From the NCBI GenBank assembly GCA_002403855.1, contig DHIO01000006.1:111356-175355 (forward strand): 64,000 nt of DNA, in the 5' to 3' direction. The notes beneath the pieces were generated by a model. That model worked only from the letters and a program-made list of their open reading frames with translations, did not search any database and was not told the DNA's origin. Origin of the DNA: Acidimicrobiia bacterium UBA4744. Lineage in GTDB: Bacteria; Actinomycetota; Acidimicrobiia; Spongiisociales; UBA4744. Numbering within the stretch: the stretch's first letter is position 1; each line of letters starts with the position of its first letter. Below are positions 19,648 to 45,600 of this stretch, piece by piece. The position numbers and the translations under genes are program-made.

Positions 19648-19668
19648 GGTTGGGCTCGCTTCGTCGGC

Positions 19669-22398: not shown

Positions 22399-22460
22399 GC
22401 GTGCGAAACGATTGCCCGCCGGTTCTCCGGCGTTCTGCTCCGGCCAATCCGATTGCAGGT

Positions 22461-22763: not shown

Positions 22764-22966
22764 CAGCTACTCCTTTGCGACGCCGTACGATCGCACGATT
22801 CGTTTTCGTGCCGCCGATTGGCTTCATCACCATGATATCACCCGACCGGCTGTTGCCCTAGGGTCACCTGGCCTCTTTGGAAAGAGACAGAGGTCCAACT
22901 GGATACCTGTCGTGACATCGAGCGGACCCGGACGTTGACACGATCGACGGCGATTCCCATTTTCCG

Positions 22967-23476: not shown

Positions 23477-23484
23477 CCGACGTC

Positions 23485-25934: not shown

Positions 25935-25962
25935 GGCTTGCCCTTTCCTCTCGATCCGGGTG

Positions 25963-26379: not shown

Positions 26380-26389
26380 AGGTTTCCTC

Positions 26390-29794: not shown

Positions 29795-29955
29795 AGGCTC
29801 CAGTCAGTGTGTCGCTCGTTGTCGAAGGGGTCGATCATTGCGGGGAAGGGCGGGGGAGTGCCGATAGGGGAAGACAGCCGCTTCCGGCTGGTTGATGACG
29901 CTCCGGCGTGGTGCCGGCGCCGCGAAGATCCAAGCATCTCGCGTAGTGACTCCCT

Positions 29956-29971
29956 TGTGAATCCATTCACA
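29956..29971. promoter_or_regulatory. perfect CRP-type palindrome TGTGAatccatTCACA upstream of hdrA
   Basis: Exact match to the TGTGA-N6-TCACA consensus. It sits in the 242-bp intergenic gap between the etfD-like gene and hdrA, about 165 bp upstream of the hdrA start. Confidence 0.45.
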
Positions 29972-30036
29972 ATGATGGTGGTCGTCTCCCCGGCTTGCCA
30001 GGGCCAAAAGGCTCTCCCTGGGGACTTCAAGACCCA

Positions 30037-32031
30037 TCACAAGGCCTCGGCCACCAGTTCGATGAGGTCTTTGACGGCCAGACGATCCGCGTAGCCGCCG
30101 CTCTTGGCGGCGTCCTCGAACATCACCAGGTCCTTGGGGCAGGAGACGATCAGCATTTCCACCCCCTCCAAACCGGCGGCTTCTTCGACTCTCATGGCGG
30201 CCGGGCGTTGTTGGGTGTCTCCCTCTTCCATCCAGATGCGACCTCCTCCCGCTCCACAGCACATCGCCCGATCACCATGGCGGGGCATCTCGACGAGTGT
30301 GCATCCGGCTGCTTCGATGACCCTGCGCGGCGCGTCGTACACGCCGTTGTAGCGACCGAGGTAGCACGGGTCGTGGTACGTGACCCGGTATCCCAGCTCC
30401 CGGCCTAGTCGCAGACGGCCGTCGGCGATCAACTGATCCAGCAGCTCCGAGTAGTGCAGTACCGGTCGCCCGCCGTTGATCTCCGCCGGGTATTCGTTCT
30501 TGAGGGCGTTGTAGGTATGGGGATCGGTGGTGACGATGCTCCGGAATTCGCAGGCGTTCAGAGCCGCAGCGTTGTCCTCGGCGAGCATCTCGAACAAGCC
30601 CTCTTCCCCGACCCGCCGCACATCGTTGCCGGCATTGCGTTCCGCCTCGTAGAGCAGTCCAAAATCGAGATCGGCACGGCGAAAGACCTCTGCGGTCGTC
30701 TTGGTGGCACTGGCCAACGTGGCGCTGTATGCGGCATAGTCGCCCGTGAACCAGAGGTAGTCCACGGGTTCCCGCCGGGCATCCTTGATCTTCTCCGGCA
30801 GGCCTTTGGTCCATTTGGCACGCGCCCGCTCCGACTGGCCGAACGAATTGCCGTAACGACCCAGATTGGCCATCGCTTCCTGGAGCATCCCGTCCATCCG
30901 CCCTTCCATCACGAGGTGGCGCCGCATGTCGACGATCGGCGTAACGTGCTCGATGAAGAGCGGACACTCCTGATCGCAGGCGGAGCAGGTGACGCAGGCC
31001 CAGAGGATTTCTTCGGTGATGACGTCGCCGACGAGCTCGCTCTCGAGCACGGCCCCGTTCTGCTGTCCATCACGGAGCGCTACTCCCCGCTGAATCAGGT
31101 TGTCGCGGAGGGACATGATGAGCAGCTTGGGAGAAAGGGGCGACCCGCTGGCGTAGGCGGGACACACGTCCTGACACCGACCGCATTCGGTACAGGTGTA
31201 GAAGTCGAGCAACTGGCGCCGGCGGAACTGTTCTACTGCGTTCACGCCCACGTCGCCATTGAATTCCGGTGCCGGCGGCAAGCGGCCGGGCGGGTCCAGG
31301 TTTCGCAAGAAGACGGCGGGGATCGAGGTGACCACATGAAAGTGTTTGCCCCCCGGAAGCTCGGTGAGGAAGGCGAGCACCACGATCAGGTGGATCCAGT
31401 AGGCGGCCTCTTCGACCACTTCCAACGTCGGGTCGCTGAGGCCCGACAGCACGGCACCCACGGCCGAGGCCACCGGTCGCCAGTCGGCCAGAGGATCCTC
31501 GCCGAGTTCGATGCGGATCCCATTGATCACCAGCAGGCTCACCACGATGGTCAAGATGAACGACAGGACCATCACCGCCTGGGCCCGGTGGCTTCCCTCG
31601 TAGCGGGGCGGATTGACGACCAGGCGAAGGTAGAGGGCGTACACGACGGCGATCCCTACGAGAGCAGCAAACAGATCTTGGAGGAGAGCCAACGGACCGA
31701 ATTCGCCGATCACCGGGATCACGAACCCGGGGTCGGCGAAGGCCACGAGTCCTTCGATGATCGCCTGCAAGATCGTCAGGATCAGGATGACGAAGCCCCA
31801 GAAGACGAAGAAGTGGGCGATACCCGGCGCCAGGAAGCGGAACAGGCGCAGTTGGCCTCCCACATACACGACCAGCCCCTTGATTCGCTCGATCCACCGG
31901 CCGTAAGGCGGTCCCGGTCGACCGCGTTGTAGGTTCACCCACAAGAGTTGATAGACCCGCAGGCCGAAGACGGCGAAGGAAACCACCAGGAGAAGGACGA
32001 CGACGATGGACTTGACCGCTTCGTACTCCAT
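30037..32031 (-). CDS. membrane-anchored Fe-S oxidoreductase: NarI-like di-heme cytochrome b domain fused to an HdrD-like 4Fe-4S/CCG domain (EtfD / DsrMK-HdrED-like)
   Basis: 664 aa. The N-terminus has five hydrophobic helices with conserved His (HFFVFWGF, YWIHLIV, HFHVV). Then come CTECGRCQDVCP and CVTCSACDQECP, and C-terminal CCG motifs (PCYLGR, MCCGAGGG). Confidence 0.8.
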   Translation of the reverse strand: MEYEAVKSIVVVLLLVVSFAVFGLRVYQLLWVNLQRGRPGPPYGRWIERIKGLVVYVGGQLRLFRFLAPGIAHFFVFWGFVILILTILQAIIEGLVAFADPGFVIPVIGEFGPLALLQDLFAALVGIAVVYALYLRLVVNPPRYEGSHRAQAVMVLSFILTIVVSLLVINGIRIELGEDPLADWRPVASAVGAVLSGLSDPTLEVVEEAAYWIHLIVVLAFLTELPGGKHFHVVTSIPAVFLRNLDPPGRLPPAPEFNGDVGVNAVEQFRRRQLLDFYTCTECGRCQDVCPAYASGSPLSPKLLIMSLRDNLIQRGVALRDGQQNGAVLESELVGDVITEEILWACVTCSACDQECPLFIEHVTPIVDMRRHLVMEGRMDGMLQEAMANLGRYGNSFGQSERARAKWTKGLPEKIKDARREPVDYLWFTGDYAAYSATLASATKTTAEVFRRADLDFGLLYEAERNAGNDVRRVGEEGLFEMLAEDNAAALNACEFRSIVTTDPHTYNALKNEYPAEINGGRPVLHYSELLDQLIADGRLRLGRELGYRVTYHDPCYLGRYNGVYDAPRRVIEAAGCTLVEMPRHGDRAMCCGAGGGRIWMEEGDTQQRPAAMRVEEAAGLEGVEMLIVSCPKDLVMFEDAAKSGGYADRLAVKDLIELVAEAL

Positions 32032-32047
32032 CTCGGCTGCCTGTTCC

Positions 32048-33022
32048 CTACCCTCCTTTGGCTGCTCGCACCCGTTCGATCAGCACCGGCAGAAGGTCGA
32101 GCAAGTCGACTTCCGATCCGTACTGGGCGACGTCGAAGATCGGCGCTTCCGGGTCGGTATTGACGGCGATCGTCAAATCACTGTCGCTCATCCCCTCGAC
32201 GTGCTCAGGGGCTCCGCTGATACCCAGGGCCAGATAGACGTCGGGTTTGACCCGCTTCCCGGACTTGCCGACCATGCGCGTGGTGGGGAGCCAGCCTTGA
32301 TCTACGACCGGGCGGGACGCACAGACTGCGCCACCAAGCGTCTCGGCTAGTTCCTCGGCTAGCTCCACGTTGTCTTCGTTGGCTATGCCACGTCCGATCG
32401 CCACCAGGATGGGAGTGGTGGAGATGTCGATGTCCTCCGCCTTGGGCTCTTGATACCCCGCAAAGGCGACCCGTCCGCTTCCCAGCGGCGAAACGGAGGT
32501 TCTGGTCACCTCCGGCGCGGTTTCCCCCCTTCCTTGTTCCGGCTTGTAGCCGCCCGGCACCATGGTGATCAGGGCGTTTGGTTCGGGAATGTCGCCTTCG
32601 ACGAGGATCTTCCCACCGCAGATCTGGCTGATGAATCGCAGCCTGCCGTTCGCCGCGTCGACACTCCGACACCGGCTCACCAGCGGCATGCTCAGGCGGG
32701 CGGACAGAACCCCGGCTACCTCGGCTCCCATCGATGTGTCGCCGAAGAGCACGCAGCGGGGCGGATCGCCTCCGATCAAATCCGCCAGGATGACGTTGTA
32801 GTGCTCCGGGTTGAAGTCGGCAAGGGCGGGGTCGTCGATGTACACAACTCGATCTGCCGCCAGATCACCGGCCAGGGTCTCGCCGTCATGACCGAGCAAC
32901 ACGGCCGCGACGCCACCACCGGTTCCGGTAGCCAGCCGGCGGGCGGCGGCCACTGCCACGTAGGTGATGTCCGCGACTTGCCCCCGCAGGTGCTCGACGA
33001 TGACGTGTATGTCTTGGCTCAT
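32048..33022 (-). CDS. etfA: electron transfer flavoprotein alpha subunit
   Basis: 324 aa. Contains the C-terminal FAD-binding region PDVYLALGISGAPEHVEGM (ALGISGA...H) typical of EtfA/FixB. Confidence 0.85.
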   Translation of the reverse strand: MSQDIHVIVEHLRGQVADITYVAVAAARRLATGTGGGVAAVLLGHDGETLAGDLAADRVVYIDDPALADFNPEHYNVILADLIGGDPPRCVLFGDTSMGAEVAGVLSARLSMPLVSRCRSVDAANGRLRFISQICGGKILVEGDIPEPNALITMVPGGYKPEQGRGETAPEVTRTSVSPLGSGRVAFAGYQEPKAEDIDISTTPILVAIGRGIANEDNVELAEELAETLGGAVCASRPVVDQGWLPTTRMVGKSGKRVKPDVYLALGISGAPEHVEGMSDSDLTIAVNTDPEAPIFDVAQYGSEVDLLDLLPVLIERVRAAKGG

Positions 33023-33031
33023 CGTTCCCCC

Positions 33032-33799
33032 TCACGCCTTCCCCAGCTCTCGGAGGAGATCGACGATCCTCCCCGCGACCTCATCCTCATCGCCGGTGAT
33101 CATGGTCGCCCGTTCGGCGGTCTCCGGCTTGAACATCGAATCGACCATCGGTCCTCCGGTGGTATCAAGATCCGGTGCCGCCTGCTCGTCGACGGCGGCC
33201 GTCTTCATCGCCTGACGGATTCGGCTGATGGCGACGTAGCGGGGTGGCGATTCCGCTGCTTGAACCCCGAGCACTGCCGGCATCTCGACGTCCATCTCGG
33301 CGATCAGACCGCCCGGGTATTCCTTGCGGACCCGGCATCGACCGTTGATAGGAGCGATCCCCGACACGTAACCCACGTAGGGCATACCGACGTATTCGGC
33401 GAGCAGCGGACCCAGTGACCCATCCAGATCGTTGTGGGCCTGTACACCTACCAGCACCAGATCTGGCTCGAGGATTCGAACGGTGGTGGCGTAGAACCGC
33501 GCCATGGCATGATTGTTGACATTGACCCCGTAGTCGACTCCGGTCAGCTTGATGAGCCGGTCGACCCCTTTGGCCGATGAGGCAAACAGGACATCATCGA
33601 CTCCCTCGCCGTCCAGGCTGATAACCGATACCGTCCCGGAGAGGCTCTCCTTGAGTAGGAGAGCCTGTTCGAGGGCGTGCTCATCGACCTCGTTGAGAAT
33701 GAATCGGAGCCAGGTCGTGTCGAGGGCCGTCCCGCCGTCATCGATCTCCAGTTCTTCAACCAGGTCGGGAACGAGCTTGACCGGTACCACGATGTTCAT
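33032..33799 (-). CDS. etfB: electron transfer flavoprotein beta subunit
   Basis: MNIVVPVKLVPD N-terminus typical of EtfB/FixA, in a 255-aa protein. Confidence 0.85.
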   Translation of the reverse strand: MNIVVPVKLVPDLVEELEIDDGGTALDTTWLRFILNEVDEHALEQALLLKESLSGTVSVISLDGEGVDDVLFASSAKGVDRLIKLTGVDYGVNVNNHAMARFYATTVRILEPDLVLVGVQAHNDLDGSLGPLLAEYVGMPYVGYVSGIAPINGRCRVRKEYPGGLIAEMDVEMPAVLGVQAAESPPRYVAISRIRQAMKTAAVDEQAAPDLDTTGGPMVDSMFKPETAERATMITGDEDEVAGRIVDLLRELGKA

Positions 33800-33803
33800 G
33801 ACT

Positions 33804-35024
33804 TCACCCCTGCTCGATCAATGAATCCACCAACAACTCGGCAATGTCCTTGACCACGAGGTGCTTGGCCCCTGTCACCGTCTTGGTGGCATCCTCGAAA
33901 CGAGGCATCTCGTAAGGACAGGTCACGGCCAGGATGTCGGCCCGGACGTCGATGGCTTCCTGCACTCGAATCTCGGACAACCGGAAGTGAGCCTTCTCCC
34001 ACCGGAAACCGTCGAGCCACATCCCACCCCCCCCTCCACCGCAGCAGATGCTGGTTTCCCGGGTGTGCAACATTTCTACCAATTCGACTCCGGGAACAGC
34101 GGTCAGCAACCGCCGGGGATCCTCGTAGATGCCGTTGGCCCGTCCCAGATAGCAGGGATCGTGGAAAGCCACCCGGGCCGGGATCTCTCGAGTGAGCAAG
34201 GGTTGGAGCCGATCGAGCCGCCCTGCCAGGAATTGGCTGTAGTGGGCCACCGGGTAGGAGATACCCAACGCCGGGTACTCGTTCTTGAGAGCGTTGAACG
34301 CGTGAGGATCGGTGGTCAGGATTTCTTCGAATTCGTACTTGCCGAATGCCCTGGCGTTCTTCTCGGCCAGCATCTCGAACAGCCCCGTCTCACCCGCCAG
34401 GCGTTGAGAATCCCCGTCGCTGTTCTCTTCAGGGCCGAGTATGCCGTAGTCGACGTCGAGGCGGTTGAGAACCCTGGCCAGCGCTTGTGAAGCTTGGCGG
34501 CCGCGCGGATGGTACGAGGCGTAGTCGCCCACGAACCAAAGGACTTCCACCGGGCGCTTGATCTTGCTGAGGATGGGGACCGCGGGTTCGATGTCCATCG
34601 CCCAATCGGCGCGCCGCCGCGGTGGCTCACCGAGGGCGTTTCCATAGCGCTGCGAGTTCTCGAGGGCTTCCTGGAGTTCGGCGGGGATGCTGCCGGTCAA
34701 CAGCATTTCCTCCTTGGCCCGGGTCATCAGGCCGTTGGTGAGGGGGATCTGCGCCGGACAAATCTGTGCACAGGCGTAGCAGGAAACACAGAGCCAGAGC
34801 GAGTCGACTCCCATCACCTTTTCGAACATCCCCGCTCGCATGGCGGAGATCATCTTGTGGGGAGGGAAATCCATCAAGTAGCCAAACGGACAGATGCCGC
34901 TACACGCGGCACACTGCAGGCAAGCGCGAATTCGCCGGCCCTCTTCCACTTCTTCCAGGCTGAGACTGAATGAATCCGTGAAGCCGGCCGCGTCGGCGGC
35001 CTCCATCGCCGGTGCTGCCATCAT
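33804..35024 (-). CDS. soluble HdrD/GlcF-like Fe-S oxidoreductase (two 4Fe-4S motifs plus two CCG domains)
   Basis: CLQCAACSGICP, CVSCYACAQICP, PCYLGR and ICCGGGGGG motifs. The start is taken at the ATGATG at 35024, 5 nt after GAAAGGTG. The ORF extends to 35048 with a TTG. Confidence 0.75.
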   Translation of the reverse strand: MMAAPAMEAADAAGFTDSFSLSLEEVEEGRRIRACLQCAACSGICPFGYLMDFPPHKMISAMRAGMFEKVMGVDSLWLCVSCYACAQICPAQIPLTNGLMTRAKEEMLLTGSIPAELQEALENSQRYGNALGEPPRRRADWAMDIEPAVPILSKIKRPVEVLWFVGDYASYHPRGRQASQALARVLNRLDVDYGILGPEENSDGDSQRLAGETGLFEMLAEKNARAFGKYEFEEILTTDPHAFNALKNEYPALGISYPVAHYSQFLAGRLDRLQPLLTREIPARVAFHDPCYLGRANGIYEDPRRLLTAVPGVELVEMLHTRETSICCGGGGGGMWLDGFRWEKAHFRLSEIRVQEAIDVRADILAVTCPYEMPRFEDATKTVTGAKHLVVKDIAELLVDSLIEQG

Positions 35025-35192
35025 TCGCACCTTTCTGTCGATAGTCAATCCGTCCTATGTCGCGCCTCGCCACCCTCGAGTTCTGTGACGGTCAGGGATG
35101 GCCTCATGGACGTAAGTGTCTTGCGTGACGGGGCGGTATCCAACCTCTCCACAACGACTCCAGGACCTTCCTTCGGAGTATGCGGTCGTTCT

Positions 35193-35216
35193 TGTGAATT
35201 CTTTCACTAGAGTGAA
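35193..35216. promoter_or_regulatory. CRP/FNR-type operator candidate in the divergent promoter region: TGTGAattcttTCAC overlapping the perfect palindrome TTCACtagaGTGAA
   Basis: Read directly from the sequence. 14 of 16 positions match TGTGA-N6-TCACA. Centred about 160 bp from both divergent start codons (35024 and 35358). Confidence 0.4.
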
Positions 35217-35357
35217 CGGGGTGGCTAGGGTCAAAAGACTCAACCTGCCGGAGGTCGAGGCCGGCAGCTACGCAAGACCTCACCACGGTGACGGCCCTGT
35301 GGGGCGCGCAGCACGGGCGTTGCGACCGGCCCACGCCGGCCTGAGGTCGGGATCGGT

Positions 35358-37082
35358 GTGAACCACGAGCCCCTCACCATCATGTGTGCTGCCGCAGTTT
35401 GTGCCGACCTGCTCCGGTTGCGCGACACCCTCGAGAAGCTCTACGGAGAGTCGGCTCGCGTGGAGGCTCACCACAGTGGGGAAGGCTTGTGCCACGCGTT
35501 AGAGGCCCATCTCGCCTGTGGAGATCTCGTTCCCGTGGTGGTCGTCGACTGCCGGCTGGCCGACGGTACGGGAGCCGACGCCCTCGTTGATCTCGCCGAT
35601 CGCGATGCCAGCGGTGCCACCCGCAAGGTCCTCATTCTCGCTGATGATGAGACCGCCGAGACGGATCGAATCCTGGCGAAAGTGGCGCTCGATGGTGTCC
35701 TCACCCGGCCATGGACCATCCACGAGTTGCGGACTACCGTCGAGCGACTCGTCGATGAATACCTCAGAGAGGTAGACCCCGAGGCGGATAGAAGATTCGC
35801 TGCGTTCACTATGGGTCCCACCGGTTCCACCGAGCGTGACGCGCAACGCACTGGGGGAGACCTCCTGCAACGTTTCGATGAGCAGGTTCGGCGCGACCGA
35901 GCCAAACAACGAAGCTTCCTCGAGGATCGCGATCTCAGAGACAACGAAGTCGAACAGGCAATGATCGATGAGATGGAGCGGGTCCTCGGGTATCCCCCGC
36001 GGAAACGACTGCCGGCCGGAAGCCTGATCCTGACTGAAGGCGAATCGATCGATGGAATCACTGTGGTTTTGGACGGCGAGGTTCGCTTGTTCCGGGAGGT
36101 GGACGGCCGGGAGATCGTGTTTCACCATCTCACCGCCGGGCGAATTATCGGGTTGATGTCGCTAGCTCAATCACGCCCGGCAGTTTTCAATGTCGAGGCC
36201 GAAACAGAAGTCACCGTGATGCCGGTCACGCTGGAGCAACTCGATTCGGCGTTGCGAGCCAGTCCCAGCCTGTCCGCACACTTCGTGTCTGTCTTGGTGA
36301 GATCATTGGCGCGACGCAATCTGCGCAGCATCGAACAACAGCTGCAAATCCGAGAGTTCGCCACGAGCCGGATCAAGGAATCGGAGCGGCTGGCGGTGGT
36401 GGGTCAACTAGCTGCCGGAGTGGCTCACGAGTTGAACAACCCTTTGCAGGGAATCGTCGCCTATTCCCACTTGCTGTTGGAGAAGCACGCCGAAGACGGA
36501 CGCCACCGATCATCTCTGGAGAAGATCGTCGCCCAGGCCGATCGATGTATCGCCATCGTGAGGGCTCTGCTCGATTTCTCGCGTCCGACCGCGCCGAAGA
36601 AGCAATCCTCTGACGTGAACTCGCTGCTGACCGACTGCATAGAGCTGGTCGAGGAACAAGCTCTCTTTCTCAACATCGCGATCGACCGGGACTTGGAACC
36701 GACCTTGCCGCTGGTCATGGTCGATCCATCGCAGATACAGCAGGTGTTCGTCAACTTGATCATCAATGCGGCCGAAGCGATGGACGGCGACGGACGCCTG
36801 GAGATAACCACTCGCCATATGGATAGCGAGGTCGAGATCGAGTTCACGGACAGTGGACCGGGGATCAACCCCGAAGACTTGGACCGGGTGTTCGACCCAT
36901 TCTTCTCGACCAAGGAGGCAGGCCATGGGACGGGTTTGGGCCTGGCGATCAGTTACGGGATAGTCCGCGAGCACGGAGGTCGCATCACTGCGGCGAGCGA
37001 GGAAGTAGCGGGAGCAACATTTGTCGTTCGGCTCCCGATTACGGTCGATCGGCCCTGGAGCAACAACATGGAGCAGGAGTAG
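35358..37082 (+). CDS. cytoplasmic sensor histidine kinase with N-terminal receiver-like domain and a cyclic-nucleotide-binding (CAP-effector) domain
   Basis: 574 aa with no TM segments. Contains a cNMP-binding-like region (LILTEGESIDGITVVLDGEVRLFREVDGREIVFHHLTAGRIIGLMSL), a HisKA H-box (AAGVAHELNNPLQGIV), and HATPase N/G boxes (NLIINAAEA, DSGPGI, GTGLGLAIS). Confidence 0.8.
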   Translation: MNHEPLTIMCAAAVCADLLRLRDTLEKLYGESARVEAHHSGEGLCHALEAHLACGDLVPVVVVDCRLADGTGADALVDLADRDASGATRKVLILADDETAETDRILAKVALDGVLTRPWTIHELRTTVERLVDEYLREVDPEADRRFAAFTMGPTGSTERDAQRTGGDLLQRFDEQVRRDRAKQRSFLEDRDLRDNEVEQAMIDEMERVLGYPPRKRLPAGSLILTEGESIDGITVVLDGEVRLFREVDGREIVFHHLTAGRIIGLMSLAQSRPAVFNVEAETEVTVMPVTLEQLDSALRASPSLSAHFVSVLVRSLARRNLRSIEQQLQIREFATSRIKESERLAVVGQLAAGVAHELNNPLQGIVAYSHLLLEKHAEDGRHRSSLEKIVAQADRCIAIVRALLDFSRPTAPKKQSSDVNSLLTDCIELVEEQALFLNIAIDRDLEPTLPLVMVDPSQIQQVFVNLIINAAEAMDGDGRLEITTRHMDSEVEIEFTDSGPGINPEDLDRVFDPFFSTKEAGHGTGLGLAISYGIVREHGGRITAASEEVAGATFVVRLPITVDRPWSNNMEQE

Positions 37083-37086
37083 CTTG

Positions 37087-38232
37087 ATGGCTATGGCACT
37101 CGAGGATGGTCGCTCGAGGATCCTCATCATCGACGATGAGCAGGTGGTGCTCGAATCCTGCATAGAGATCTTGCTCGACCAGCCCTACGACGTCGCCACC
37201 GCGTCCAGCGGCGCTCGCGGTCTGGAATTCATGGAGGAATTCCGGCCCGATCTGGTGTTCGTGGACTTGAAGATGCCCGGCCTCTCCGGCCTGGAAGTCC
37301 TCGAAGCTATCAACCGGGATGACCCGACAGTCGTGACGGTGGTCATCACCGGGTACGCCACCGTGGACTCGGCGATCGAGGCCATGAAGCTAGGAGCGTA
37401 CGATTTCATCCCCAAGCCGTTTACGCCCGACCAGTTCCGGGTGATCACCGCACGCAGTCTGGAAAAGCGCAAGCTCGTTCTCGAGACGATCGCGCTACGC
37501 CGTGAAAAGGAGATGCTTCGGGAGAACTTCGCCGCGATCGTTAGCCATGAGCTGAAATCACCGCTGAGTGCCGTTCAGCAGAATCTCTTCGTCTTGGCAC
37601 ATCAACTCTCTCCCGTCACTACCGAGGACCAGCGAGTGCAACTCGAGCGCATGAAGTCACGGATCGGTGATCTTCTGGACCTAGTGGATCGATGGTTGCG
37701 CAGCGTCTCGGTCGACCTGGACGGCATCCGAGAACGATTCGAGACCCTGCCTCTCTCTGTTCCGATCACCAAGGCAGTCGAGTCCGTGCAACCCCAAGCC
37801 GTTCGCAAAGACGTCGAGATCGTCGTACAAGAACGCGCCGGGAGTGTCTACGGCCACGAAGGGGTTCTTACCGAAGCCCTGACCAACATCATCGGCAATG
37901 CGGTGAAGTACTCGTATGAGGGCGGCACCGTCACCATCACGACGAAGCAACTCGACGACCGAGTCAGGGTCGATGTGACGGATACCGGAGTGGGTATTTC
38001 GGAAGACGACCGAGTTCACATCTTCGATGACTTCTACCGAGGGGACGTCGGCATGAGCCGCCAGAGCGGCGCCGGACTCGGGCTGGCCATCAGTCGGAGG
38101 ATCATTGAGGCCCACAACGGATCCGTGTCGGTCGAGAGCGAGTTGGGGAGAGGCACCACCTTCACCATCCTCCTTCCCACCGAGGCCCCTGAGCCTCCCG
38201 TTTCACGTTTACCTGAGAGGAGCGAGATCTAA
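37087..38232 (+). CDS. hybrid response regulator-histidine kinase (N-terminal receiver, then HisKA and HATPase)
   Basis: Receiver domain (RILIIDDEQ...LVFVDLKMPGLSG...AYDFIPKPF), H-box IVSHELKSPL, and HATPase (NIIGNAVKYS, DTGVGI, GAGLGLAISRRI). The start is 5 nt after the upstream kinase stop. Confidence 0.8.
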   Translation: MAMALEDGRSRILIIDDEQVVLESCIEILLDQPYDVATASSGARGLEFMEEFRPDLVFVDLKMPGLSGLEVLEAINRDDPTVVTVVITGYATVDSAIEAMKLGAYDFIPKPFTPDQFRVITARSLEKRKLVLETIALRREKEMLRENFAAIVSHELKSPLSAVQQNLFVLAHQLSPVTTEDQRVQLERMKSRIGDLLDLVDRWLRSVSVDLDGIRERFETLPLSVPITKAVESVQPQAVRKDVEIVVQERAGSVYGHEGVLTEALTNIIGNAVKYSYEGGTVTITTKQLDDRVRVDVTDTGVGISEDDRVHIFDDFYRGDVGMSRQSGAGLGLAISRRIIEAHNGSVSVESELGRGTTFTILLPTEAPEPPVSRLPERSEI

Positions 38233-38248
38233 TGCAGGGAGGAATCCC

Positions 38249-38674
38249 ATGAACCCGACGAAACGGCTACTCATCGTCGACGACGATCCAGACTTCGCCG
38301 GTGCGATCAGCGAGATCCTCGAATCGGCCGGCTACGAGACGGACATAACGCACAACCCCAAGGAGGGATGGGCGGCGCTCAAGACGAACAAGTACGACCT
38401 TCTCCTGCTGGACATCATGATGGGTCGGGGCGCCGAGGGTGTGATGATGGCCCGTAAGATCCGCAAGGATGAATCGTTGCGCGAGATGCCGGTGCTCATC
38501 ATCACCGGTTTGCGCGAGCAGATTGCTTTTCTCTTCCCGGGCCAAGCCATCCATCCGGGATTCGTGCCGGTCGACGAATTGGTCGAGAAGCCGGTGGAGC
38601 CTGAACTTCTTCTCGACCGGGTTGGTGCGCTGATCGAAGCCTCCGAGGCGCGATCGCCGGGGGGTGATGAGTAA
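38249..38674 (+). CDS. single-domain response regulator (CheY-like receiver)
   Basis: MNPTKRLLIVDDDPDF...YDLLLLDIMMGRG...KIRK, 141 aa, with a GCAGGGAGG RBS upstream. Confidence 0.8.
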   Translation: MNPTKRLLIVDDDPDFAGAISEILESAGYETDITHNPKEGWAALKTNKYDLLLLDIMMGRGAEGVMMARKIRKDESLREMPVLIITGLREQIAFLFPGQAIHPGFVPVDELVEKPVEPELLLDRVGALIEASEARSPGGDE

Positions 38675-39247
38675 GTGTTTCCTGCCACGACTTCACCCCA
38701 ATTCAGCATGGAAGTCATGAACCTTCTCTACGCAGGCGACGGGAAACCGCCGAACCTCTGCGTGCATTGTTCGGTCTGCTCGGCTACCTGCCCGGCTGTG
38801 GAGTTCATGGACCACTCCCCGCGCATGCTCTTGGCCATGATCAACGCCGGGATGAAGGACGAGGTGCTTGCCAGCAACACGTTCTGGACTTGTGCCTCGT
38901 GCTTTGCCTGCTCGGAGCGGTGTCCCCAAGGGATACACGTAGCCCAGATCATGTATGCACTGAAGCGTTACTCGCTGTGGCACAACCGGTACCCGGAAGG
39001 GTTGGTTGGGCCCGATTTCTCACGGCGTTTCGTGAAGACCATCCTTGCCAACGGAAAGTCGTACGAGCCCGGCTACGCCCCTGCCTTTATCTGGGAGGGG
39101 GGGCTTCCGGGGCTTCTGTACGAGATGCTGGGAGCCGTCAAGCTATTGCGGCGCGGGCGACTCCAGTTGATTCCCAAGAAGATCAAACGCGTGGACAACT
39201 TCCGCCAGATGATCGGGCGGATCATACCCCTGGAGGGTATCTCGTGA
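38675..39247 (+). CDS. hdrC: heterodisulfide reductase subunit C-like (two 4Fe-4S motifs)
   Basis: CVHCSVCSATCP and CASCFACSERCP motifs in a protein of about 190 aa. The GTG start lies directly after the response-regulator stop, preceded by GGGGTGATGAG. Confidence 0.75.
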   Translation: MFPATTSPQFSMEVMNLLYAGDGKPPNLCVHCSVCSATCPAVEFMDHSPRMLLAMINAGMKDEVLASNTFWTCASCFACSERCPQGIHVAQIMYALKRYSLWHNRYPEGLVGPDFSRRFVKTILANGKSYEPGYAPAFIWEGGLPGLLYEMLGAVKLLRRGRLQLIPKKIKRVDNFRQMIGRIIPLEGIS

Positions 39248-40149
39248 AGACGTACGCCTACTACCCCGGTTGTTCCCTCGAGTCGATGGCGGTCAGCTAC
39301 CACGTGTCCGCCGTGGAGGTTGCTCATCTTCTCGGCGTGACGCTGGTGGAGATCGAGGATTGGAACTGTTGTGGTGCCACCGCATATTCCCACGTGGACG
39401 AGCTGCTGGCACAGGTCTTGAGTGCCCGCAACCTCGCCCTGGCCGAGAAAGAGCAACGGCCGGATCTGGTCGCTCCGTGCAGCGGTTGTTTCAAGAACCT
39501 CTATTTCGCCAATGAGCACATGCTCGAAGACGCCGATCTGATGGACCACATGAACTTCGCCCTGGAGGCTGATGATCTCAGTTATTCCGGCGGTGTCACC
39601 GTCCATCACCTGATGGATTTGTTCGTGAGGGAGGTCGGCCTCGATGCGATCCGCGAAAAGGTGGAAGATCCGCTCGAAGGCCTGCGCGTTGCCCCGTACT
39701 ACGGGTGTCAGATGACCCGCCCGAGGAAGCCGGGGGAGGGTCTGGAGGATGTGGAAGGGCCGCGGTTCTTCGAGGAGTTGGTCGGGGCGCTCGGGGCGAT
39801 ACCGGTCGACTATCCCTATCGGATGCGCTGCTGTGGGGCCTCGTTGATAGCGACCAGCCGGCAGGCGGCCCTCTCCATGCTGCGGGACTTGCTGCAGAGT
39901 GCCATGGACGCCGGCGCGGACGTGATTGCCACGTCATGCCCGCTGTGCCAGATCAACCTGGAGGTCTACCAGTCCGAGGTCAACCGGGAACTCGGCACGG
40001 AGTTCTCCATGCCGATCATGTACTTCACCCAGTTGATGGGCCTCGCACTGGGGATCAAGCCGAAGCAGTTGGGGATCGGTAGCGAGGTCGTCCCGGTCGC
40101 TCCGGTCTTGGCCTGTCGCCAGAGCCAGCGGACTGCAGTGGCCGGCTGA
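39244..40149 (+). CDS. hdrB: heterodisulfide reductase subunit B-like (two CCG domains)
   Basis: VKTYAYYPGCSLE N-terminus with the CCG motifs NCCGATAY and RCCGASL. 301 aa. The GTG start overlaps the hdrC stop (GTGA). Confidence 0.8.
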   Translation: MKTYAYYPGCSLESMAVSYHVSAVEVAHLLGVTLVEIEDWNCCGATAYSHVDELLAQVLSARNLALAEKEQRPDLVAPCSGCFKNLYFANEHMLEDADLMDHMNFALEADDLSYSGGVTVHHLMDLFVREVGLDAIREKVEDPLEGLRVAPYYGCQMTRPRKPGEGLEDVEGPRFFEELVGALGAIPVDYPYRMRCCGASLIATSRQAALSMLRDLLQSAMDAGADVIATSCPLCQINLEVYQSEVNRELGTEFSMPIMYFTQLMGLALGIKPKQLGIGSEVVPVAPVLACRQSQRTAVAG

Positions 40150-40427
40150 CGGGAGACAACCGACCTCGAGGTCGCCGGCCGGGCGGGCCGCACCTGCGGC
40201 CGCCCTTGTCGCGGAGTACCTCGCCGGCATCCCCTCTCGGTGGTCGAACGCACCAACCGCGCCCGACCACTCTGCGCCTCTGAGAGCGGCCGATGCCTGG
40301 GTCGGCCACCGGCGCCCATCCCCGGATCGATGGGAGGAAAGGGGGCCAATAGGTTGACATGTGGTGCGGAATGGGGCATAGTGGCACGCAGTGGAGGACT
40401 ACGGATGCCGGACAGGGTGCAGGAATC

Positions 40428-40859
40428 ATGTTCCTCGGTGAGTACCAACACACGCTCGACCCGAAAGGGAGAGTCGTGTTGCCCGCCAAATTCCGCGAAC
40501 GATTGGCGGAGGGGTGCGTCATCACCAAGGGGCAGGAGCGATGCCTCTACGTCTTCGCGCTCGATCGGTGGGAGACGGAGGTAGAACGAGTGAACACCCT
40601 TCCCCGCACCGACGCCCGGGCTCGCAAGCTGGCCCGGTCGTTCTTCGCCGGAGCCGACCAGCAGATTCCCGACAAGCAGGGGAGAGTGCAGGTCCCCACC
40701 AATCTCCGCAACTATGCGGATCTCAGCAAAGACCTGACCGTGGTCGGCGTCGCCGACCGAGTCGAGATCTGGGACACGGCGACTTGGGATCGCATGTCCG
40801 CAGAAGCAGACGAGTACTACGCCGACATAGAGGAGGCCCTCGGCGAACACGGAATCTGA
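40428..40859 (+). CDS. mraZ: transcriptional regulator MraZ
   Basis: MFLGEYQHTLDPKGRVVLPAKFRE...QGRVQVPTNLR shows the duplicated MraZ motif, in a 143-aa protein. Confidence 0.9.
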   Translation: MFLGEYQHTLDPKGRVVLPAKFRERLAEGCVITKGQERCLYVFALDRWETEVERVNTLPRTDARARKLARSFFAGADQQIPDKQGRVQVPTNLRNYADLSKDLTVVGVADRVEIWDTATWDRMSAEADEYYADIEEALGEHGI

Positions 40860-40959
40860 CAAGGCAATCGAGGACTGGTTCATCGCCAGCCCCCCGGAAC
40901 CAACGGAAGGCCCCCTACTCCGCCCGCTTCCTTTGGTGCCAGCGCCCGGGGGGCTGGCA

Positions 40960-41916
40960 ATGGATCAGACACCCGAGAGCCGTGAGTTTCACGAAGCGGT
41001 TATGGCAGAGGAGGTGGTCGAACTGTTCCGTCCGTTGCAGAAAGGGCTGGTCCTGGACGCGACTTTCGGCGGCGGCGGCCACAGCCGACGCCTCCTGGAT
41101 GCCCTCGGCAGCAACGTGCGGGTCCTCGCTTTCGACCGGGATCCGGATGCAATCCGCGAGGCGGAAGCGTTGCGGGCTGAAACCGGCATCGGAGAGCGAC
41201 TGCAGATCGTCAACCGCAACTACAGGGGTTTGGAAGAAGTGTTGATCGAACGGAGCATCGACAGTATTGACGGCGCCCTCTTCGACCTGGGGGTCTCCGG
41301 TCACCAGGTCGAGGAGGGTACCCGAGGTTTCTCGTACCGGTCGGCCGGGCCACTCGACATGCGGATGGGTCCCGATGCTCCCCACACGGCCGCCGAACTG
41401 GTCAACGACTGGCCGGAATCCGATCTGGCCCGGGTACTCCGTTCTTACGGCGAAGAGAGATTCGCCGGCCGCATCGCCCGGGCGATCGTGGCCGCCCGTC
41501 CGGTCTCAGACACTGCCCAACTAGCCGAAGTTGTTCGTGCGGCAATTCCGGCTGCTACTCGCCGGACCGGGGGACATCCCGCCCGCAGGACCTTCCAGGC
41601 GTTGCGGATCGCCGTCAATGATGAACTCGGCGACCTCGAGGAGGGTCTCGAATCGGCGCTGCGCCGTCTACGCGCCGGCGGCCGGTGTGTCGTCATTTCC
41701 TACCACTCGCTCGAAGACCGCATCGTCAAACGCCGCTTCGCGCAGGGTGCGGGCGGTTGTACGTGTCCACCCGACTTCCCGGTTTGTGTGTGCGAGGACA
41801 CCACGGAACTCCGCCTGCTCGTCCGCAAGCCACTTCGGCCCACCGAGGAGGAGGTGGTGACCAACCCGCGGGCCCGTAGCGCCCGACTGCGGGCGATCGA
41901 GAAGGTTGCCGCGTGA
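40960..41916 (+). CDS. rsmH: 16S rRNA (cytosine1402-N4)-methyltransferase
   Basis: HEAVMAEEVVELF...DATFGGGGHS SAM-binding motif, in a 318-aa protein. Confidence 0.9.
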   Translation: MDQTPESREFHEAVMAEEVVELFRPLQKGLVLDATFGGGGHSRRLLDALGSNVRVLAFDRDPDAIREAEALRAETGIGERLQIVNRNYRGLEEVLIERSIDSIDGALFDLGVSGHQVEEGTRGFSYRSAGPLDMRMGPDAPHTAAELVNDWPESDLARVLRSYGEERFAGRIARAIVAARPVSDTAQLAEVVRAAIPAATRRTGGHPARRTFQALRIAVNDELGDLEEGLESALRRLRAGGRCVVISYHSLEDRIVKRRFAQGAGGCTCPPDFPVCVCEDTTELRLLVRKPLRPTEEEVVTNPRARSARLRAIEKVAA

Positions 41917-42317
41917 CTGCTCACCCGGCGCCGGTTCGGCAGAAACGCCCCCATATCCGGGTCCTACCCGGGCGGGGATTTCAGCCGCTGCGGATGGCTC
42001 CGTGGTTCCTCTTCACAGCCCTGGTGATCTTCGTCTTCTTCGCGCTCATCTACTCGCGGACCACTCTGAGCGACTCCGCTTTCCGGCTCAAGGAAGTCGA
42101 AGCGCAGATCGCCCAGGAAGAATCGACCTATCAGCAGCTGCGGCTGGAGGTGGCGCGTCTCCAATCACCGGAGCGAGTCGTTCCGCTGGCCGAGCAGATC
42201 GGCCTGGTTCTCCCCGAACAGGTACGGACCGTCGAGGCGTTCGGGGTCACCGGCACCGAAGGGGGCGCGGAGGAACGTTGGGCGGAAGTGAAGTCGATCT
42301 TGACCGCATCGCCATGA
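41913..42317 (+). CDS. ftsL: cell division protein FtsL-like
   Basis: Small bitopic protein with one TM helix (WFLFTALVIFVFFALIY) followed by a coiled coil. It occupies the FtsL position in the dcw cluster. Confidence 0.65.
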   Translation: MTAHPAPVRQKRPHIRVLPGRGFQPLRMAPWFLFTALVIFVFFALIYSRTTLSDSAFRLKEVEAQIAQEESTYQQLRLEVARLQSPERVVPLAEQIGLVLPEQVRTVEAFGVTGTEGGAEERWAEVKSILTASP

Positions 42318-42413
42318 GGACGACCGGACCATGCGCTGGCGACCGGAGCCCGAAGGGTCACCAAGAACCCGTACACAAAGGCTCGCCCGCCGGGGTCCCC
42401 CCGGAGGTATAGC

Positions 42414-44147
42414 GTGGGGGGGCGGCAGACAAGCCGCCGCTCGCGGGCAACCGACTACCGGCTGATTGCCGTTGCCGTCGGGCTCATCCTGGCCTGGGCG
42501 GCCGTCGGGATCCGGCTCTTCCAAGTGCAGGTCGTCAAGGCAGACGAACTGGCCGCGATGGGGCTCGATCAGCGCCTCACCGTAAAAGAACTGGCAGCCG
42601 ACCGCGGCAACATCTTCGACCGGGAAGGTCGCGAGCTCGCCATCACGGTGGATGCCACAACGATCTACGCCAACCCTCGGCAGGTGACGACACCGGAGGT
42701 CACGGCGTCGGTCCTGGCAGCCGCTCTGGGGCTCGATACCGCCGCGGTGCTCGACAAACTCACTTCCGATAGGAGTTTCGTGTTCATTGCTCGCCAGGTT
42801 GAATGGGAACAGGCGGAGCCGGTCACCGCTCTGGGGCATCCCGGAATCCACTGGTACACCGAGCCCAAACGCGTCTATCCGGCGGGACGCATGGCTGCCC
42901 AGGTCATCGGCTTCGTCAACATCGACAATCAGGGCATCGAGGGACTCGAGTTCGGTTACGACGAAGAGCTGAGCGGGTCGCCGGGCCGGCTCGAAGCCGA
43001 GCAGGACCCCGAAGGCCGCCTCATCACGTTCGGCGAATACGACGTTGTCCCGGCCGTGCCGGGAAGCGATCTCATCACGACGATCGATCGGGAGATCCAG
43101 TTCATTGCGGAAGAGGTGTGCGAGGACACCATCGTTCGCACTGGTGCACAGCGTTGCTCCGTTGTTGTTCTCGACCCAGACTCGGGAGAGGTGCTGGCCA
43201 TGGTGACGCTGCCCAGCTTTGACCCCGGTGATCGGGCCGGTATCGATTCCGACCGGTACCGGAACTGGGCGGCGCTGTCGGTTTTCGAGCCGGGCTCCAC
43301 TCAGAAGCTCGTCACGGTGGCGGCGGCGCTGGAGGAGAAAGCGGTCAGTGCGGCGACCACCTTCGAAGTGCCGGATCAGATCGAAATCGTCCCCGGCGCC
43401 TGTCCGGACAATGAGGATGTCTATGGGTGTTTCACCGACAACACTCCGCATGAGCCTCGCATCATGAGCGTCACGGACATCGTCACCCGCTCGTCGAACG
43501 TGGGCACCATTCTGATCGGGCAGGAACTGGGCGAAGAGAAGCTGGCCGACTACCTGGGCGCGTTCAACTACGGGTCTCACACCGGCATCGATTTTCCCGG
43601 GGAAGCTGCCGGGGAGATCAACCTTGCCGCCGGATGTCAGTCGTGCCCTGCGTCGGCGGCGATCGGCTACAGCGTGTCGGTCACCGAACTCCAAATGGCC
43701 GCGGTGTATGCCACCATTGCCAACGATGGCGTGTGGGTACAACCGCACTTGGTCAAGGAGATCGTCGATGGCATCGGCGTCCGCAGTCCGATGGACCCCG
43801 AACACCGGCGGGTCGTCTCGGAGGACTCTGCCCGTATCATGCGTCTCCTTCTGCAAAACGTCGTTGAAAGCGAAGACGGAACCGGCCAACAAGCCCGGGT
43901 GAGCGGATACACCGTTGGAGGCAAGACGGGGACCACCCGCCGCTTCGAGGAAGGTGAGGGATACACGGACGATTTCGTGGCGAGTTTCATCGGGATGGCT
44001 CCCGTCGATGAACCCGAGATCGTCGTCGCGGTCGTTGTCGACGCCCCGCTGTCGGACAACACCGGCGGTCGCGCCGCCGCCCCGGCGTTTGCCGAAATCG
44101 TCGAGCGGACTCTGCATCAAATGGGGGTGGCACCCGATGCCTCCTGA
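42414..44147 (+). CDS. ftsI: penicillin-binding protein (FtsI-type transpeptidase)
   Basis: 577 aa with an N-terminal TM helix, an STQK-like active-site motif (GSTQKLVT), and KTGTT. Confidence 0.85.
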   Translation: MGGRQTSRRSRATDYRLIAVAVGLILAWAAVGIRLFQVQVVKADELAAMGLDQRLTVKELAADRGNIFDREGRELAITVDATTIYANPRQVTTPEVTASVLAAALGLDTAAVLDKLTSDRSFVFIARQVEWEQAEPVTALGHPGIHWYTEPKRVYPAGRMAAQVIGFVNIDNQGIEGLEFGYDEELSGSPGRLEAEQDPEGRLITFGEYDVVPAVPGSDLITTIDREIQFIAEEVCEDTIVRTGAQRCSVVVLDPDSGEVLAMVTLPSFDPGDRAGIDSDRYRNWAALSVFEPGSTQKLVTVAAALEEKAVSAATTFEVPDQIEIVPGACPDNEDVYGCFTDNTPHEPRIMSVTDIVTRSSNVGTILIGQELGEEKLADYLGAFNYGSHTGIDFPGEAAGEINLAAGCQSCPASAAIGYSVSVTELQMAAVYATIANDGVWVQPHLVKEIVDGIGVRSPMDPEHRRVVSEDSARIMRLLLQNVVESEDGTGQQARVSGYTVGGKTGTTRRFEEGEGYTDDFVASFIGMAPVDEPEIVVAVVVDAPLSDNTGGRAAAPAFAEIVERTLHQMGVAPDAS

Positions 44148-45600
44148 GACCCTGCTGTCTGATCTGGCTGCCGTCGTCGGGGGACGGGTGATCGGCTCCG
44201 ACCAGGTACCGATTCGCGATGTGACCCACGACAGTCGGAGGGCTGCTCCGGGCGTGCTCTTCGTCGCCGTCCGCGGTTTTACTACCGACGGGCACGACTA
44301 TGTCGCCCAGGCGGTCGCCGGCGGGGCGGCTGCCGTATGCGTCGAACAGAGCCAGGACCTCGCCGTTCCCCAGCTGATCGTCACGGATGGGCGAGCCGCA
44401 CTTCCCGCTCTGGCCGCCACCGTTCATCATCATCCCTCGCGCCGTCTCCGGGTGGTAGGCGTCACCGGCACCAACGGCAAGACGACCGTCGCCTACCTCG
44501 TCGAGTCGATCGCCATTGCGGCGGGACTCACCGGTGCACTCGTCGGCACCGTTGGAGCACGTATCGCCGGTCGGCCGCTGCCGGCCGGGAGGACGACTCC
44601 GGAAGCAACCGATCTCCAGCGCCTGCTCGCCGAGATGGTCGACCAGCATGTCGATGTTGCCGCTATCGAGGTCTCCTCACATGCACTTGCGCTGCATCGC
44701 GTCGACGAGGTCGCATTCAGTGTCGCAGCCTTCACCAACCTCAGCCAGGATCACCTGGACTTCCACAAGGACATGGAGGACTACTTCGAAGCGAAAGCAA
44801 CCTTGTTCGAGGCCGGACGTGCCGCCCACGCGGTCATCTGGGTCGACGATCCTTACGGAGCTCGACTCGCCGATCGGGTGGATATCCCGGTGACCCGGGT
44901 CGGGCTCGGCTCCGACGCCGATGTGAGGGCCACCTCGATTGCTGTGACGGCGACCGGTTCGACGTTCGATCTGGTCGTCCGGGATCAGGCACGGCTGGTG
45001 CAGTTGCCTCTCGGCGGAGCCTTCAATATCGAGAATGCCCTGGTAGCCGCCGCCTGCGCTTCGGCGCTCGACGTAGGACTCGAAGACATCGACGCCGGAA
45101 TCCGGAACGTATCGCAGATCCCCGGTCGCTTTGAGAAAATCGACGCCGGCCAATCTTTCGCCGTGATCGTCGACTACGCCCACACGCCCGAGGGCATCGG
45201 GTCGGTGGTGGCCGCGGCGCGCCGAGTCTCCGCCGGGACGGTGTATGTCGTGGTCGGAGCGGGAGGGGATCGGGACCGTCTCAAGCGGCCCGCCATGGGG
45301 GCGGCCGCGGCGGAAGCCGATGTTGCCATCATCACGTCGGACAACCCACGGTCGGAAGACCCCCTGGCGATCATCACCGAAGTGGTTTCCGGGGCGGAGG
45401 AGGGACGTGCCGAACTGCACGTGGTGCCGGATCGGCGATCTGCCATTCGCACGGCAGTTCAAGGGGCTGCGGCCGGAGACGTGGTGTTGATCCTGGGCAA
45501 GGGCCACGAACCAGGGCAGGAGGTACGCGGGCGGGTCGAGCCCTTCGATGATCGGGTGGTGGCGAGCGAAGAGTTGGCCGGACTCGAGGTGCCCCGATGA
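44137..45600 (+). CDS. murE: UDP-N-acetylmuramoyl-L-alanyl-D-glutamate--2,6-diaminopimelate ligase
   Basis: GVTGTNGKTT P-loop, DNPR motif, and a typical MurE C-terminus. The start MPPETLL overlaps the ftsI stop. Confidence 0.85.
   Translation: MPPETLLSDLAAVVGGRVIGSDQVPIRDVTHDSRRAAPGVLFVAVRGFTTDGHDYVAQAVAGGAAAVCVEQSQDLAVPQLIVTDGRAALPALAATVHHHPSRRLRVVGVTGTNGKTTVAYLVESIAIAAGLTGALVGTVGARIAGRPLPAGRTTPEATDLQRLLAEMVDQHVDVAAIEVSSHALALHRVDEVAFSVAAFTNLSQDHLDFHKDMEDYFEAKATLFEAGRAAHAVIWVDDPYGARLADRVDIPVTRVGLGSDADVRATSIAVTATGSTFDLVVRDQARLVQLPLGGAFNIENALVAAACASALDVGLEDIDAGIRNVSQIPGRFEKIDAGQSFAVIVDYAHTPEGIGSVVAAARRVSAGTVYVVVGAGGDRDRLKRPAMGAAAAEADVAIITSDNPRSEDPLAIITEVVSGAEEGRAELHVVPDRRSAIRTAVQGAAAGDVVLILGKGHEPGQEVRGRVEPFDDRVVASEELAGLEVPR

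Follow-up and report, generated by a model that had tools for sequence, protein, structure and literature searches.

Flavin-based electron-bifurcating heterodisulfide reductase (Hdr) complexes are central to anaerobic energy metabolism, and the literature we searched treats their regulation solely as a matter of transcription. A hydrogen-sensing two-component system encoded with [NiFe]-hydrogenase genes is HupUV-HupT-HupR, in which HupR is a DNA-binding transcription activator. Receiver-only response regulators can also act by protein contact, as CheY does on FliM, DivK on DivL and PleC, and CpdR on ClpXP, and receiver-only proteins are well known as phosphate sinks. In Leptospira, the Lvr relay runs from LvrA via LvrB to LvrC; LvrB is the prototype of receiver-controlled histidine kinases, a class defined only recently, and its catalytic domains are released once its N-terminal receiver is phosphorylated (PMC13269768; PDB 8vc9). 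Here, we analysed a stretch of 64,000 nucleotides (nt) from Acidimicrobiia bacterium UBA4744 (contig DHIO01000006.1, positions 111,356 to 175,355), hereafter the window, in which three genes for signalling proteins, which we call P1, P2 and P3, directly precede an hdrC-like and an hdrB-like gene. We lean towards the reading that these five genes form a conserved unit, in which a three-step phosphorelay would serve specifically the HdrCB part of a redox complex that is cytoplasmic and of the Mvh-hydrogenase/HdrA/Etf kind.

The block occupies positions 35358-40149 of the window and consists of five open reading frames (ORFs) on the + strand. P1 (35358-37082) encodes a cytoplasmic sensor histidine kinase of 574 amino acids (aa) with a degenerate receiver, a CAP-like domain, HisKA and HATPase_c, as assigned from Pfam, a family alignment and an AlphaFold2 (AF2) model. 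P2 (37087-38232; Pfam) encodes a receiver-controlled histidine kinase of 381 aa with REC, HisKA and HATPase_c domains, and P3 (38249-38674; Pfam, an alignment of 53 orthologues and AF2) a single-domain response regulator of 141 aa. The hdrC-like gene (38675-39247; Pfam, NCBIfam and sequence) encodes 190 aa with two CX2CX2CX3CP [4Fe-4S] motifs, and the hdrB-like gene (39244-40149; Pfam, cysteine conservation and a match to 7bkb_B) 301 aa with two CCG domains. The TAG of P1 and the ATG of P2 are 4 nt apart, the TAA of P2 and the ATG of P3 16 nt, the TAA of P3 is followed by the GTG of hdrC with a spacer of 0 nt, and hdrC and hdrB overlap in GTGA (−4 nt); a Shine-Dalgarno-like GGAG or GGGAGG precedes every start codon in the block. 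ORF listing and junctions thus bear out the coordinates and the spacers or overlaps of 0-16 nt that a first-pass annotation of the same DNA had read. A consensus scan revealed no promoter-like site on the + strand within the block and neither a promoter nor a terminator between P3 and hdrC, a junction that the annotation had singled out. Judged by spacing and synteny, the tightly packed genes very probably form one unit on a single transcript, as had been claimed. Pfam detects no DNA-binding domain in P1, P2 or P3, so the proposed lack of a DNA-binding output in the three regulators stands as well.

An HdrB-alignment scan across one genome per GTDB species yielded at least 80 loci, in which the proteins of the window were then placed by tblastn and genes were assigned by our own ORF-based calls; loci counts are lower bounds, since the closest relatives and the source genome are not among the scan matches listed. 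Among these listed loci, the order kinase, REC-kinase, REC, hdrC, hdrB was present in 52 of the 53 loci of one HdrB clade and in none of the 26 classical hdrCBA loci with enough upstream DNA. Wherever HdrB was at least 55% identical to that of the window and enough upstream DNA was available, the block was present, with a single exception (L053); at 51% identity or less it was absent and the order was mostly the classical hdrC-hdrB-hdrA. A neighbour-joining tree of HdrB accordingly unites the 52 block carriers in one clade and leaves the 26 classical loci outside (Fisher's exact p = 5e-20 for block versus HdrB clade, the loci not being phylogenetically independent). The carriers are annotated as Chloroflexota, Verrucomicrobiota, Gemmatimonadota, Bacteroidota/Ignavibacteria (Ignavibacteriales), Planctomycetota, Zixibacteria, Armatimonadota, Eisenbacteria and Actinomycetota, hence as at least nine phyla; those from Chloroflexota are mostly Anaerolineae and include bins assigned to Anaerolinea thermophila and Chloroflexus.

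Median spacers across 45-51 of these loci are −8, 15, 9 and −4 nt, and the junction between P3 and hdrC measures 0-18 nt in 35 of the 45 loci measured. For the 33 carriers with at least 15 kb of sequence, we found HdrA in 32, an HdrD-like protein in 30, a relative of a 664-aa protein encoded next to the block in 30, EtfA in 29, MvhD in 26 and subunits of the hydrogenase in 24-25. Relative to the block, which itself stays intact, the modules for Etf, HdrA and Mvh can be found upstream, downstream or in divergent orientation, and the five-gene block is therefore the invariant core of these clusters. In a Planctomycetota bin, for example, all genes are co-directional: etfBA, a Fer4/CCG gene, hdrA, mvhD, kinase, REC-kinase, REC, hdrC, hdrB, [NiFe] hydrogenase genes and hyp genes. 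Because it persists in at least nine phyla despite rearrangement of the genes around it, the signalling module is very likely functionally dedicated to the Hdr system, in line with the term 'dedicated' that the first-pass annotation had chosen. Chance adjacency of a two-component system and hdrCB without functional meaning could draw only on how common two-component genes are among bacteria in general, whereas the same order and spacing recur in 52 loci of at least nine phyla and are confined to one HdrB clade; we regard its probability as negligible.

P1, the first protein of the block, matches cNMP_binding (E 3e-15; 56.4 bits versus a cut-off of 27.5) as well as HisKA and HATPase_c above the Pfam cut-offs. 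Relatives that are 62-74% identical occupy the same five-gene block, one of them on a contig with wholly different downstream genes, and the kinase core is 54-66% identical to that of Cache/HAMP kinases at the equivalent position in other phyla. P2 likewise exceeds the cut-offs for HisKA and HATPase_c, and the two kinases show the H-boxes HELNNPL and SHELKSPL; the H, N, G1, F and G2 boxes are kept in both, and H357, N466/N470, G500/G502, F512-F516 and G524-G528 are invariant in the P1 family alignment. Residues 1-140 (35358-35777, + strand) form a predicted pseudo-receiver, for which AF2 gives a (beta-alpha)5 fold with a predicted local distance difference test score (pLDDT) of about 90. The receiver-like domain noted at first pass is thus upheld as a fold, but not as a phosphorylatable receiver of the CheY type: Response_reg scores 17 bits versus the Pfam cut-off of 30 (residues 32-128), the acidic pair is Ala-Ala, Thr has become Ala and Lys Arg, and the phospho-acceptor Asp is Ser or Ala in some orthologues. 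The domain is absent from P1 orthologues of 407 aa in the same clade, whose upstream intergenic space is too small to hold it.

The second sensor domain of P1, a CAP/CRP-type beta-barrel with a degenerate phosphate-binding cassette (residues 216-300; 36003-36257, + strand), was assigned through Pfam cNMP_binding. PDB matches to CRP, CooA (1ft9) and NtcA (8h3v, 3la2) and AF2 strands at residues 216-291 agree with a CAP-family fold, on which the reading as a cNMP domain had been made to depend. In the cassette, GELSI...PRTS of Mycobacterium tuberculosis CRP is replaced by GLMSL...PAVF, with Leu for Glu, Ala for Arg and Val for Thr, so that two sets of contacts are missing, that of Glu with the ribose 2'-OH and that of Arg-Ser/Thr with the cyclic phosphate. 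Pro-Ala at the position of the Arg (P274-A275) is invariant in all 19 members of the P1 family, and the cassette segment has a pLDDT below 50 in the AF2 model. Without the Glu, Arg and Ser/Thr, sensing of cAMP or cGMP is doubtful, and canonical cyclic-nucleotide binding by this domain is unlikely. In CooA and NtcA, CAP domains are known to serve ligands that are not cyclic nucleotides; the domain of P1 resembles these in that it also lacks the canonical cAMP contacts, but its fusion partner is a histidine kinase where theirs is a helix-turn-helix. Beside the degenerate cassette lies an invariant F-H...T.GR motif (F255, H256, T259, G261 and R262; 36120-36140), whose residues are possible ligand contacts.

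The CAP-like domain does not define the module. The first kinase of the block carries Cache_3-Cache_2 or sCache_3 together with HAMP in 37 of 42 cases, and cNMP_binding in the remaining 5, all from the clade of the window; the cNMP-type sensor is thus a clade-specific replacement of a Cache+HAMP sensor. Of the cNMP-domain kinase put forward in the first-pass annotation, the CAP fold is upheld, but the emphasis on this kinase needs qualifying, and the canonical cyclic-nucleotide contacts are missing. A fold search with the whole P1 model was discarded as a source on the sensor domains, as the kinase core dominated the matches; LvrB appeared among them through this common core.

The layout of P2 follows that of receiver-controlled histidine kinases as defined in PMC13269768: an N-terminal receiver (REC, residues 12-118) is followed by the dimerisation/phosphotransfer and catalytic parts (HisKA 145-205, HATPase 260-366), with no other sensor and no transmembrane segment. 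The Asp-Asp, Asp, Thr and Lys residues of its receiver are all present in the translation. Orthologues of P2 with 52-79% identity occupy the same position in 47 loci, and P2 would add a large natural family to this class. With the Lvr relay the module shares, besides the LvrB architecture of P2, an upstream kinase, a downstream receiver protein and a kinase tier without DNA-binding domain. The two also differ: P2 is not an orthologue of LvrB (115.7 bits versus 500 for NCBIfam NF047466; LvrA, NF047465, 112.8 versus 1200), its partner is a receiver-only protein encoded next to hdrC instead of a REC-anti-sigma factor, and the genes stand in the setting of a redox enzyme and not of a virulence regulon.

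P3 is the best conserved of the five proteins, with a mean pairwise identity of 68.8%; HdrB reaches 63.4%, and HdrC and the two kinases 57-58%. Response_reg is its only Pfam domain (E 5.6e-18), and at least 90% of 53 orthologues share D11-D13, D55, T86 and K114, the residues of a CheY-like receiver. Like CheY, DivK and CpdR it is a lone receiver with intact Asp-Asp, Asp, Thr and Lys and without output domain; unlike these, it carries an invariant MGRGAEG motif directly after Asp55 and a conserved insertion between alpha4 and beta5, and with an Fe-S redox enzyme as presumed partner it would act on a type of target new for such receivers. The AF2 model of P3 reaches a pLDDT of 85.6, residues 96-109 forming a low-confidence loop. 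The P3 family is essentially a single cluster among 1.84 billion representatives at 50% identity; no solved structure matches its sequence at E <= 1e-12, and the structural matches listed, which include the receivers of DivK and FrzS, are at most 30% identical to it. A search of the 64-kb window with a P3-family hidden Markov model of low sensitivity found the receivers of P2 and P3 only.

The genes at the end of the block encode the HdrC-like and HdrB-like proteins. HdrC contains both ferredoxin motifs of the type CX2CX2CX3CP, CVHCSVCSATCP and CASCFACSERCP, and matches Fer4_8 and Fer4_17 (4Fe-4S dicluster). HdrB contains CCG twice, with ten cysteines invariant in the alignment (C10, 42, 43, 79, 82, 155, 196, 197, 232 and 235) that make up the motifs for two non-cubane [4Fe-4S] clusters, and aligns over its full length with the methanogen HdrB structures 7bkb_B and 5odc_B (E 8e-54, for 7bkb_B, to 5e-46). 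Both proteins stay below the NCBIfam cut-offs for CoB-CoM equivalogs (HdrB 216.9 versus 345, TIGR03288; HdrC 65.4 versus 160, TIGR03290), and the substrate is therefore probably a disulfide other than CoM-S-S-CoB. A 12-kb partner operon (22967-35048, − strand, from hdrD-like to hycI) runs divergently from the block and encodes all parts of an Mvh-Hdr complex except HdrB and HdrC, both of which are encoded behind the three signalling genes. Taken together, hdrA, mvhD and the genes for the small and large [NiFe] subunits (− strand, 22967-29794) with hdrBC provide the gene content of the methanogen MvhADG-HdrABC complex (PDB 5odc, 7bkb, 8rvu). The locus differs from it in the bacterial host, in EtfAB and two extra Fer4+CCG proteins, in a GltD/NfnB-like insert of HdrA and in the three signalling genes before hdrCB, which none of the 26 sampled loci of the classical hdrCBA type showed. 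It also differs from sulfur-oxidising sHdr clusters (hdrC1B1A-hyp-hdrC2B2) with their duplicated hdrCB on the two sides of hdrA and their genes for lipoate-binding proteins (lbpA), as the window has a single hdrCB pair; a GCV_H-like gene was absent from the ORFs searched in 14130-35048 and 35358-46661.

In the mechanism that we propose, P1 would autophosphorylate in response to a ligand, which would be a cytoplasmic molecule perceived via the CAP-like domain in the window and an extracytoplasmic one perceived via the Cache domain in most lineages. P1 would pass the phosphoryl group to the receiver of P2, phosphorylation of this receiver would turn on the P2 kinase as in LvrB-type kinases, and P2 would in turn phosphorylate the receiver-only P3. 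Lacking an output domain and presumably co-translated with HdrC, P3 would contact HdrC/HdrB or the assembled Hdr-Mvh complex and gate its assembly or electron flow, rather than transcription. We infer both the order of phosphotransfer and the protein-level target. Whether the output of the relay lies at the protein level appears to us close to evenly balanced, with a slight inclination in favour.

This possibility, which the first-pass annotation had raised, gains from a natural fusion protein. At locus L091, a P3-like receiver (48% identical) is followed by a gene for a kinase-MvhD fusion of 520 aa (558-2120) and by the start of an HdrC-like ORF. The first 374 residues of the fusion have the order REC-HisKA-HATPase and show 38% identity to P2 from end to end; the C-terminal 130 residues form an entire MvhD (FlpD) domain, 55% identical to MvhD of the window. 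Such a fusion implies a kinase in physical proximity to the Hdr-Mvh complex and hence favours action at the protein level.

Several findings weigh against a dedicated protein-level relay. The kinase-MvhD fusion cannot be taken as a common architecture: it is rare, and in the metagenome scan it was confined to the lineage of L091, with L094 as a truncated probable relative. Natural REC-HdrC fusions were not found, a search with concatenated P3 and HdrC giving separate HdrC proteins only. All comparison loci are metagenome-assembled. At L007 the block is present without Hdr, Etf or Mvh neighbours within 10 kb on either side; at L053 (9438-13166), HdrB falls inside the clade and no signalling or Etf genes occur within 9.4 kb upstream, which reflects either secondary loss or a second copy. 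Moreover, of the analogues of P2 the best studied is LvrB, and its signal goes to LvrC, an unlinked protein that it phosphorylates (PMC13269768).

This last point suits the main alternative reading, in which the kinases also or instead feed an unlinked regulator of transcription (a DNA-binding response regulator or an anti-sigma factor), P3 serves as a sink or modulator of the familiar receiver-only type, and hdrCB are co-transcribed for joint expression. The kinase core of P1 is of the NtrB/AtoS/ZraS type, and such kinases usually pair with sigma-54 activators. At L095 (2581-12678), sensor-type [NiFe] subunits, a PAS kinase, a sigma-54 REC-AAA-HTH_8 regulator, a double REC, a REC-kinase and subunits of a group-3-like hydrogenase are encoded together, the latter (cytoplasmic) comprising Fer4_22, an FAD/NAD-binding protein and Oxidored_q6. 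The core of the PAS kinase is 49% identical to that of P1, and the sigma-54 regulator adjoins its gene, a further point that speaks against our proposal. L095 thus joins a transcriptional branch and a receiver/kinase branch at one place, and it is a look-alike of HupUV-HupT-HupR, with which our module shares two-component genes next to [NiFe]-hydrogenase genes; unlike the Hup system, the module is attached to hdrCB and has no DNA-binding regulator in cis. Neither the window nor a single one of the 52 loci with the block encodes a sigma-54 activator or another DNA-binding regulator; a sigma-54 activator gene occurs nearby in 5 other hdrCBA loci. In addition, a phosphate sink would be expected neither to be the most conserved protein nor to hold its 0-18-nt junction with hdrC, and the kinase-MvhD fusion places a kinase on the complex itself. 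We thus consider control through an unlinked regulator rather unlikely.

Another reading reverses the direction of information: HdrCB could have an accessory role, sensing redox or thiol-disulfide conditions and informing the relay about the state of the electron-transfer chain, e.g. by binding P3 or P2. Upon cluster rearrangement HdrCB indeed go with the signalling genes and not with HdrA, and the isolated block at L007 speaks for this reading as well. However, HdrB can be aligned from end to end with a catalytic methanogen protein, and its ten CCG cysteines, like the two ferredoxin motifs of HdrC, are invariant. In the window and at most loci, this is the only hdrBC pair beside hdrA/mvhD; furthermore, P1 has a sensor domain of its own and P2 is receiver-controlled. 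HdrCB as a mere sensor therefore seems quite improbable, and we return to the relay acting on HdrCB as the reading that we prefer.

Taken further, this preferred reading would make P3-family receivers the phosphorylation-switched regulatory subunits of bacterial Hdr-Mvh-Etf supercomplexes, with Cache- or CAP-like kinases gating flavin-based electron bifurcation post-translationally and a P2-type kinase docked to the complex, as in the kinase-MvhD fusion. We offer this extension tentatively, as a possibility suggested by the gene arrangements. If true, a P3-based control layer would be common to Chloroflexota, Verrucomicrobiota, Gemmatimonadota, Planctomycetota and other phyla. All parts of the module stem from known families, so that what is new is their fixed combination and its implication. 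A published account of this module was not found in the full-text literature searched, whose coverage leaves out most subscription journals; the nearest trace is the mention of regulator genes in a figure legend on hdr clusters of Desulfobacterium autotrophicum. The module is real and widespread and apparently represents an undescribed variant of two-component signalling, with a mechanism that we infer. A phosphorelay without DNA-binding output that is locked to hdrCB would be the first sign of two-component control of such complexes at the protein level. It also provides a testable handle on what the bacterial HdrABC/Mvh/Etf clusters outside methanogens do: the ligand can be approached through the Cache or CAP sensor, the receiver protein is defined, and the module occurs in a relative in culture, judged by a bin assigned to Anaerolinea thermophila.

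Outside the block, further independent gene arrangements favour our preferred reading, as they tie receivers and kinases of the same types to Hdr and Mvh proteins. At L107 and L110, hdrA-mvhD is followed by a P3-like receiver of 50% identity. In an Eubacteriales bin (L082, 8534-9942), two receiver-only genes of 121 and 135 aa lie between the gene for a [NiFe] large subunit and a classical hdrCBA; the latter shares 4 nt with the start of hdrC, and its product contains an alpha4-beta5 insertion of the P3 type, and a sigma-54 activator is encoded approximately 5 kb upstream. In a Thermoguttaceae bin (L079, 7627-9213), a REC-GcvH-REC protein of 528 aa is encoded directly 5' of hdrC-hdrB-hdrA, with a Cache/HAMP kinase further upstream, and a lipoyl-type carrier may be the HdrB substrate there. 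An apparent P3-HdrC fusion at L005 results from an in-frame deletion of 48 nt and was discarded because the same contig also carries a 7-nt frameshift in hdrB.

With respect to transcription signals, the block is preceded by an intergenic region of 309 nt (35049-35357, from ORF coordinates) between the divergent hdrD-like gene (−) and P1 (+), which presumably holds the promoters of both operons; no convincing sigma-70-like site was found on its + strand. Terminator-like matches in the block fall only inside coding sequence and are not enriched over shuffled sequence (8 observed versus 4.5 ± 2.4 expected). One of them, at 38506-38525, was rejected as a real terminator, as it sits within P3 and its T-run belongs to codons of the invariant AFLF motif. 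A hairpin rich in G+C and trailed by UUGU (40181-40209, + strand), 32 nt 3' of the hdrB stop codon, is a possible terminator that would end the unit, with a weak z of −1.97 for the RNA fold of 40145-40270. Downstream of hdrB follow mraZ and a cell-division cluster with a promoter-like site of their own at 40354-40382. Rfam yielded no matches in 33500-41000 at E <= 0.1 and none in the whole window at the gathering score, and no tRNA was found.

The partner operon on the − strand, assigned by Pfam, comprises genes for the HdrD-like protein (Fer4+CCG; 33804-35048), EtfB (33032-33799), EtfA (32048-33022), the 664-aa Fer4+CCG protein (30037-32031), HdrA of 1134 aa with its inserted GltD/NfnB-like module (26390-29794), MvhD (about 25963-26380), the [NiFe] small subunit (24945-25934), the [NiFe] large subunit (about 23485-24950) and the HycI protease (22967-23476). 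The insert of HdrA consists of Fer4_20 and Pyr_redox_2 at approximately residues 294-782, and relatives from Anaerolineae match residues 3-293 and 783-1132 only; a similar HdrA with an NADH-binding insert is known from Ca. Symbiobacter mobilis (PMC4053972). Between hdrA and the gene of the 664-aa protein, the relatives L001, L002 and L006 have a conserved ORF of 76-82 aa without Pfam match, and the equivalent gap in the window lies at 29794-30037 (−). Beyond the hydrogenase operon, 14130-22833 (−) encodes a TatD-like protein, a universal stress protein, a resolvase-domain ORF (19669-20220) and a MoxR AAA+/DUF58/transglutaminase (TgpA-like) trio. On the other side of the block, the cell-division cluster at 43915-46661 contains a single Mur-ligase gene between the ftsI-like gene and mraY, a place occupied by murE and murF in many bacteria, and the same arrangement is found in L001, L003 and L006.

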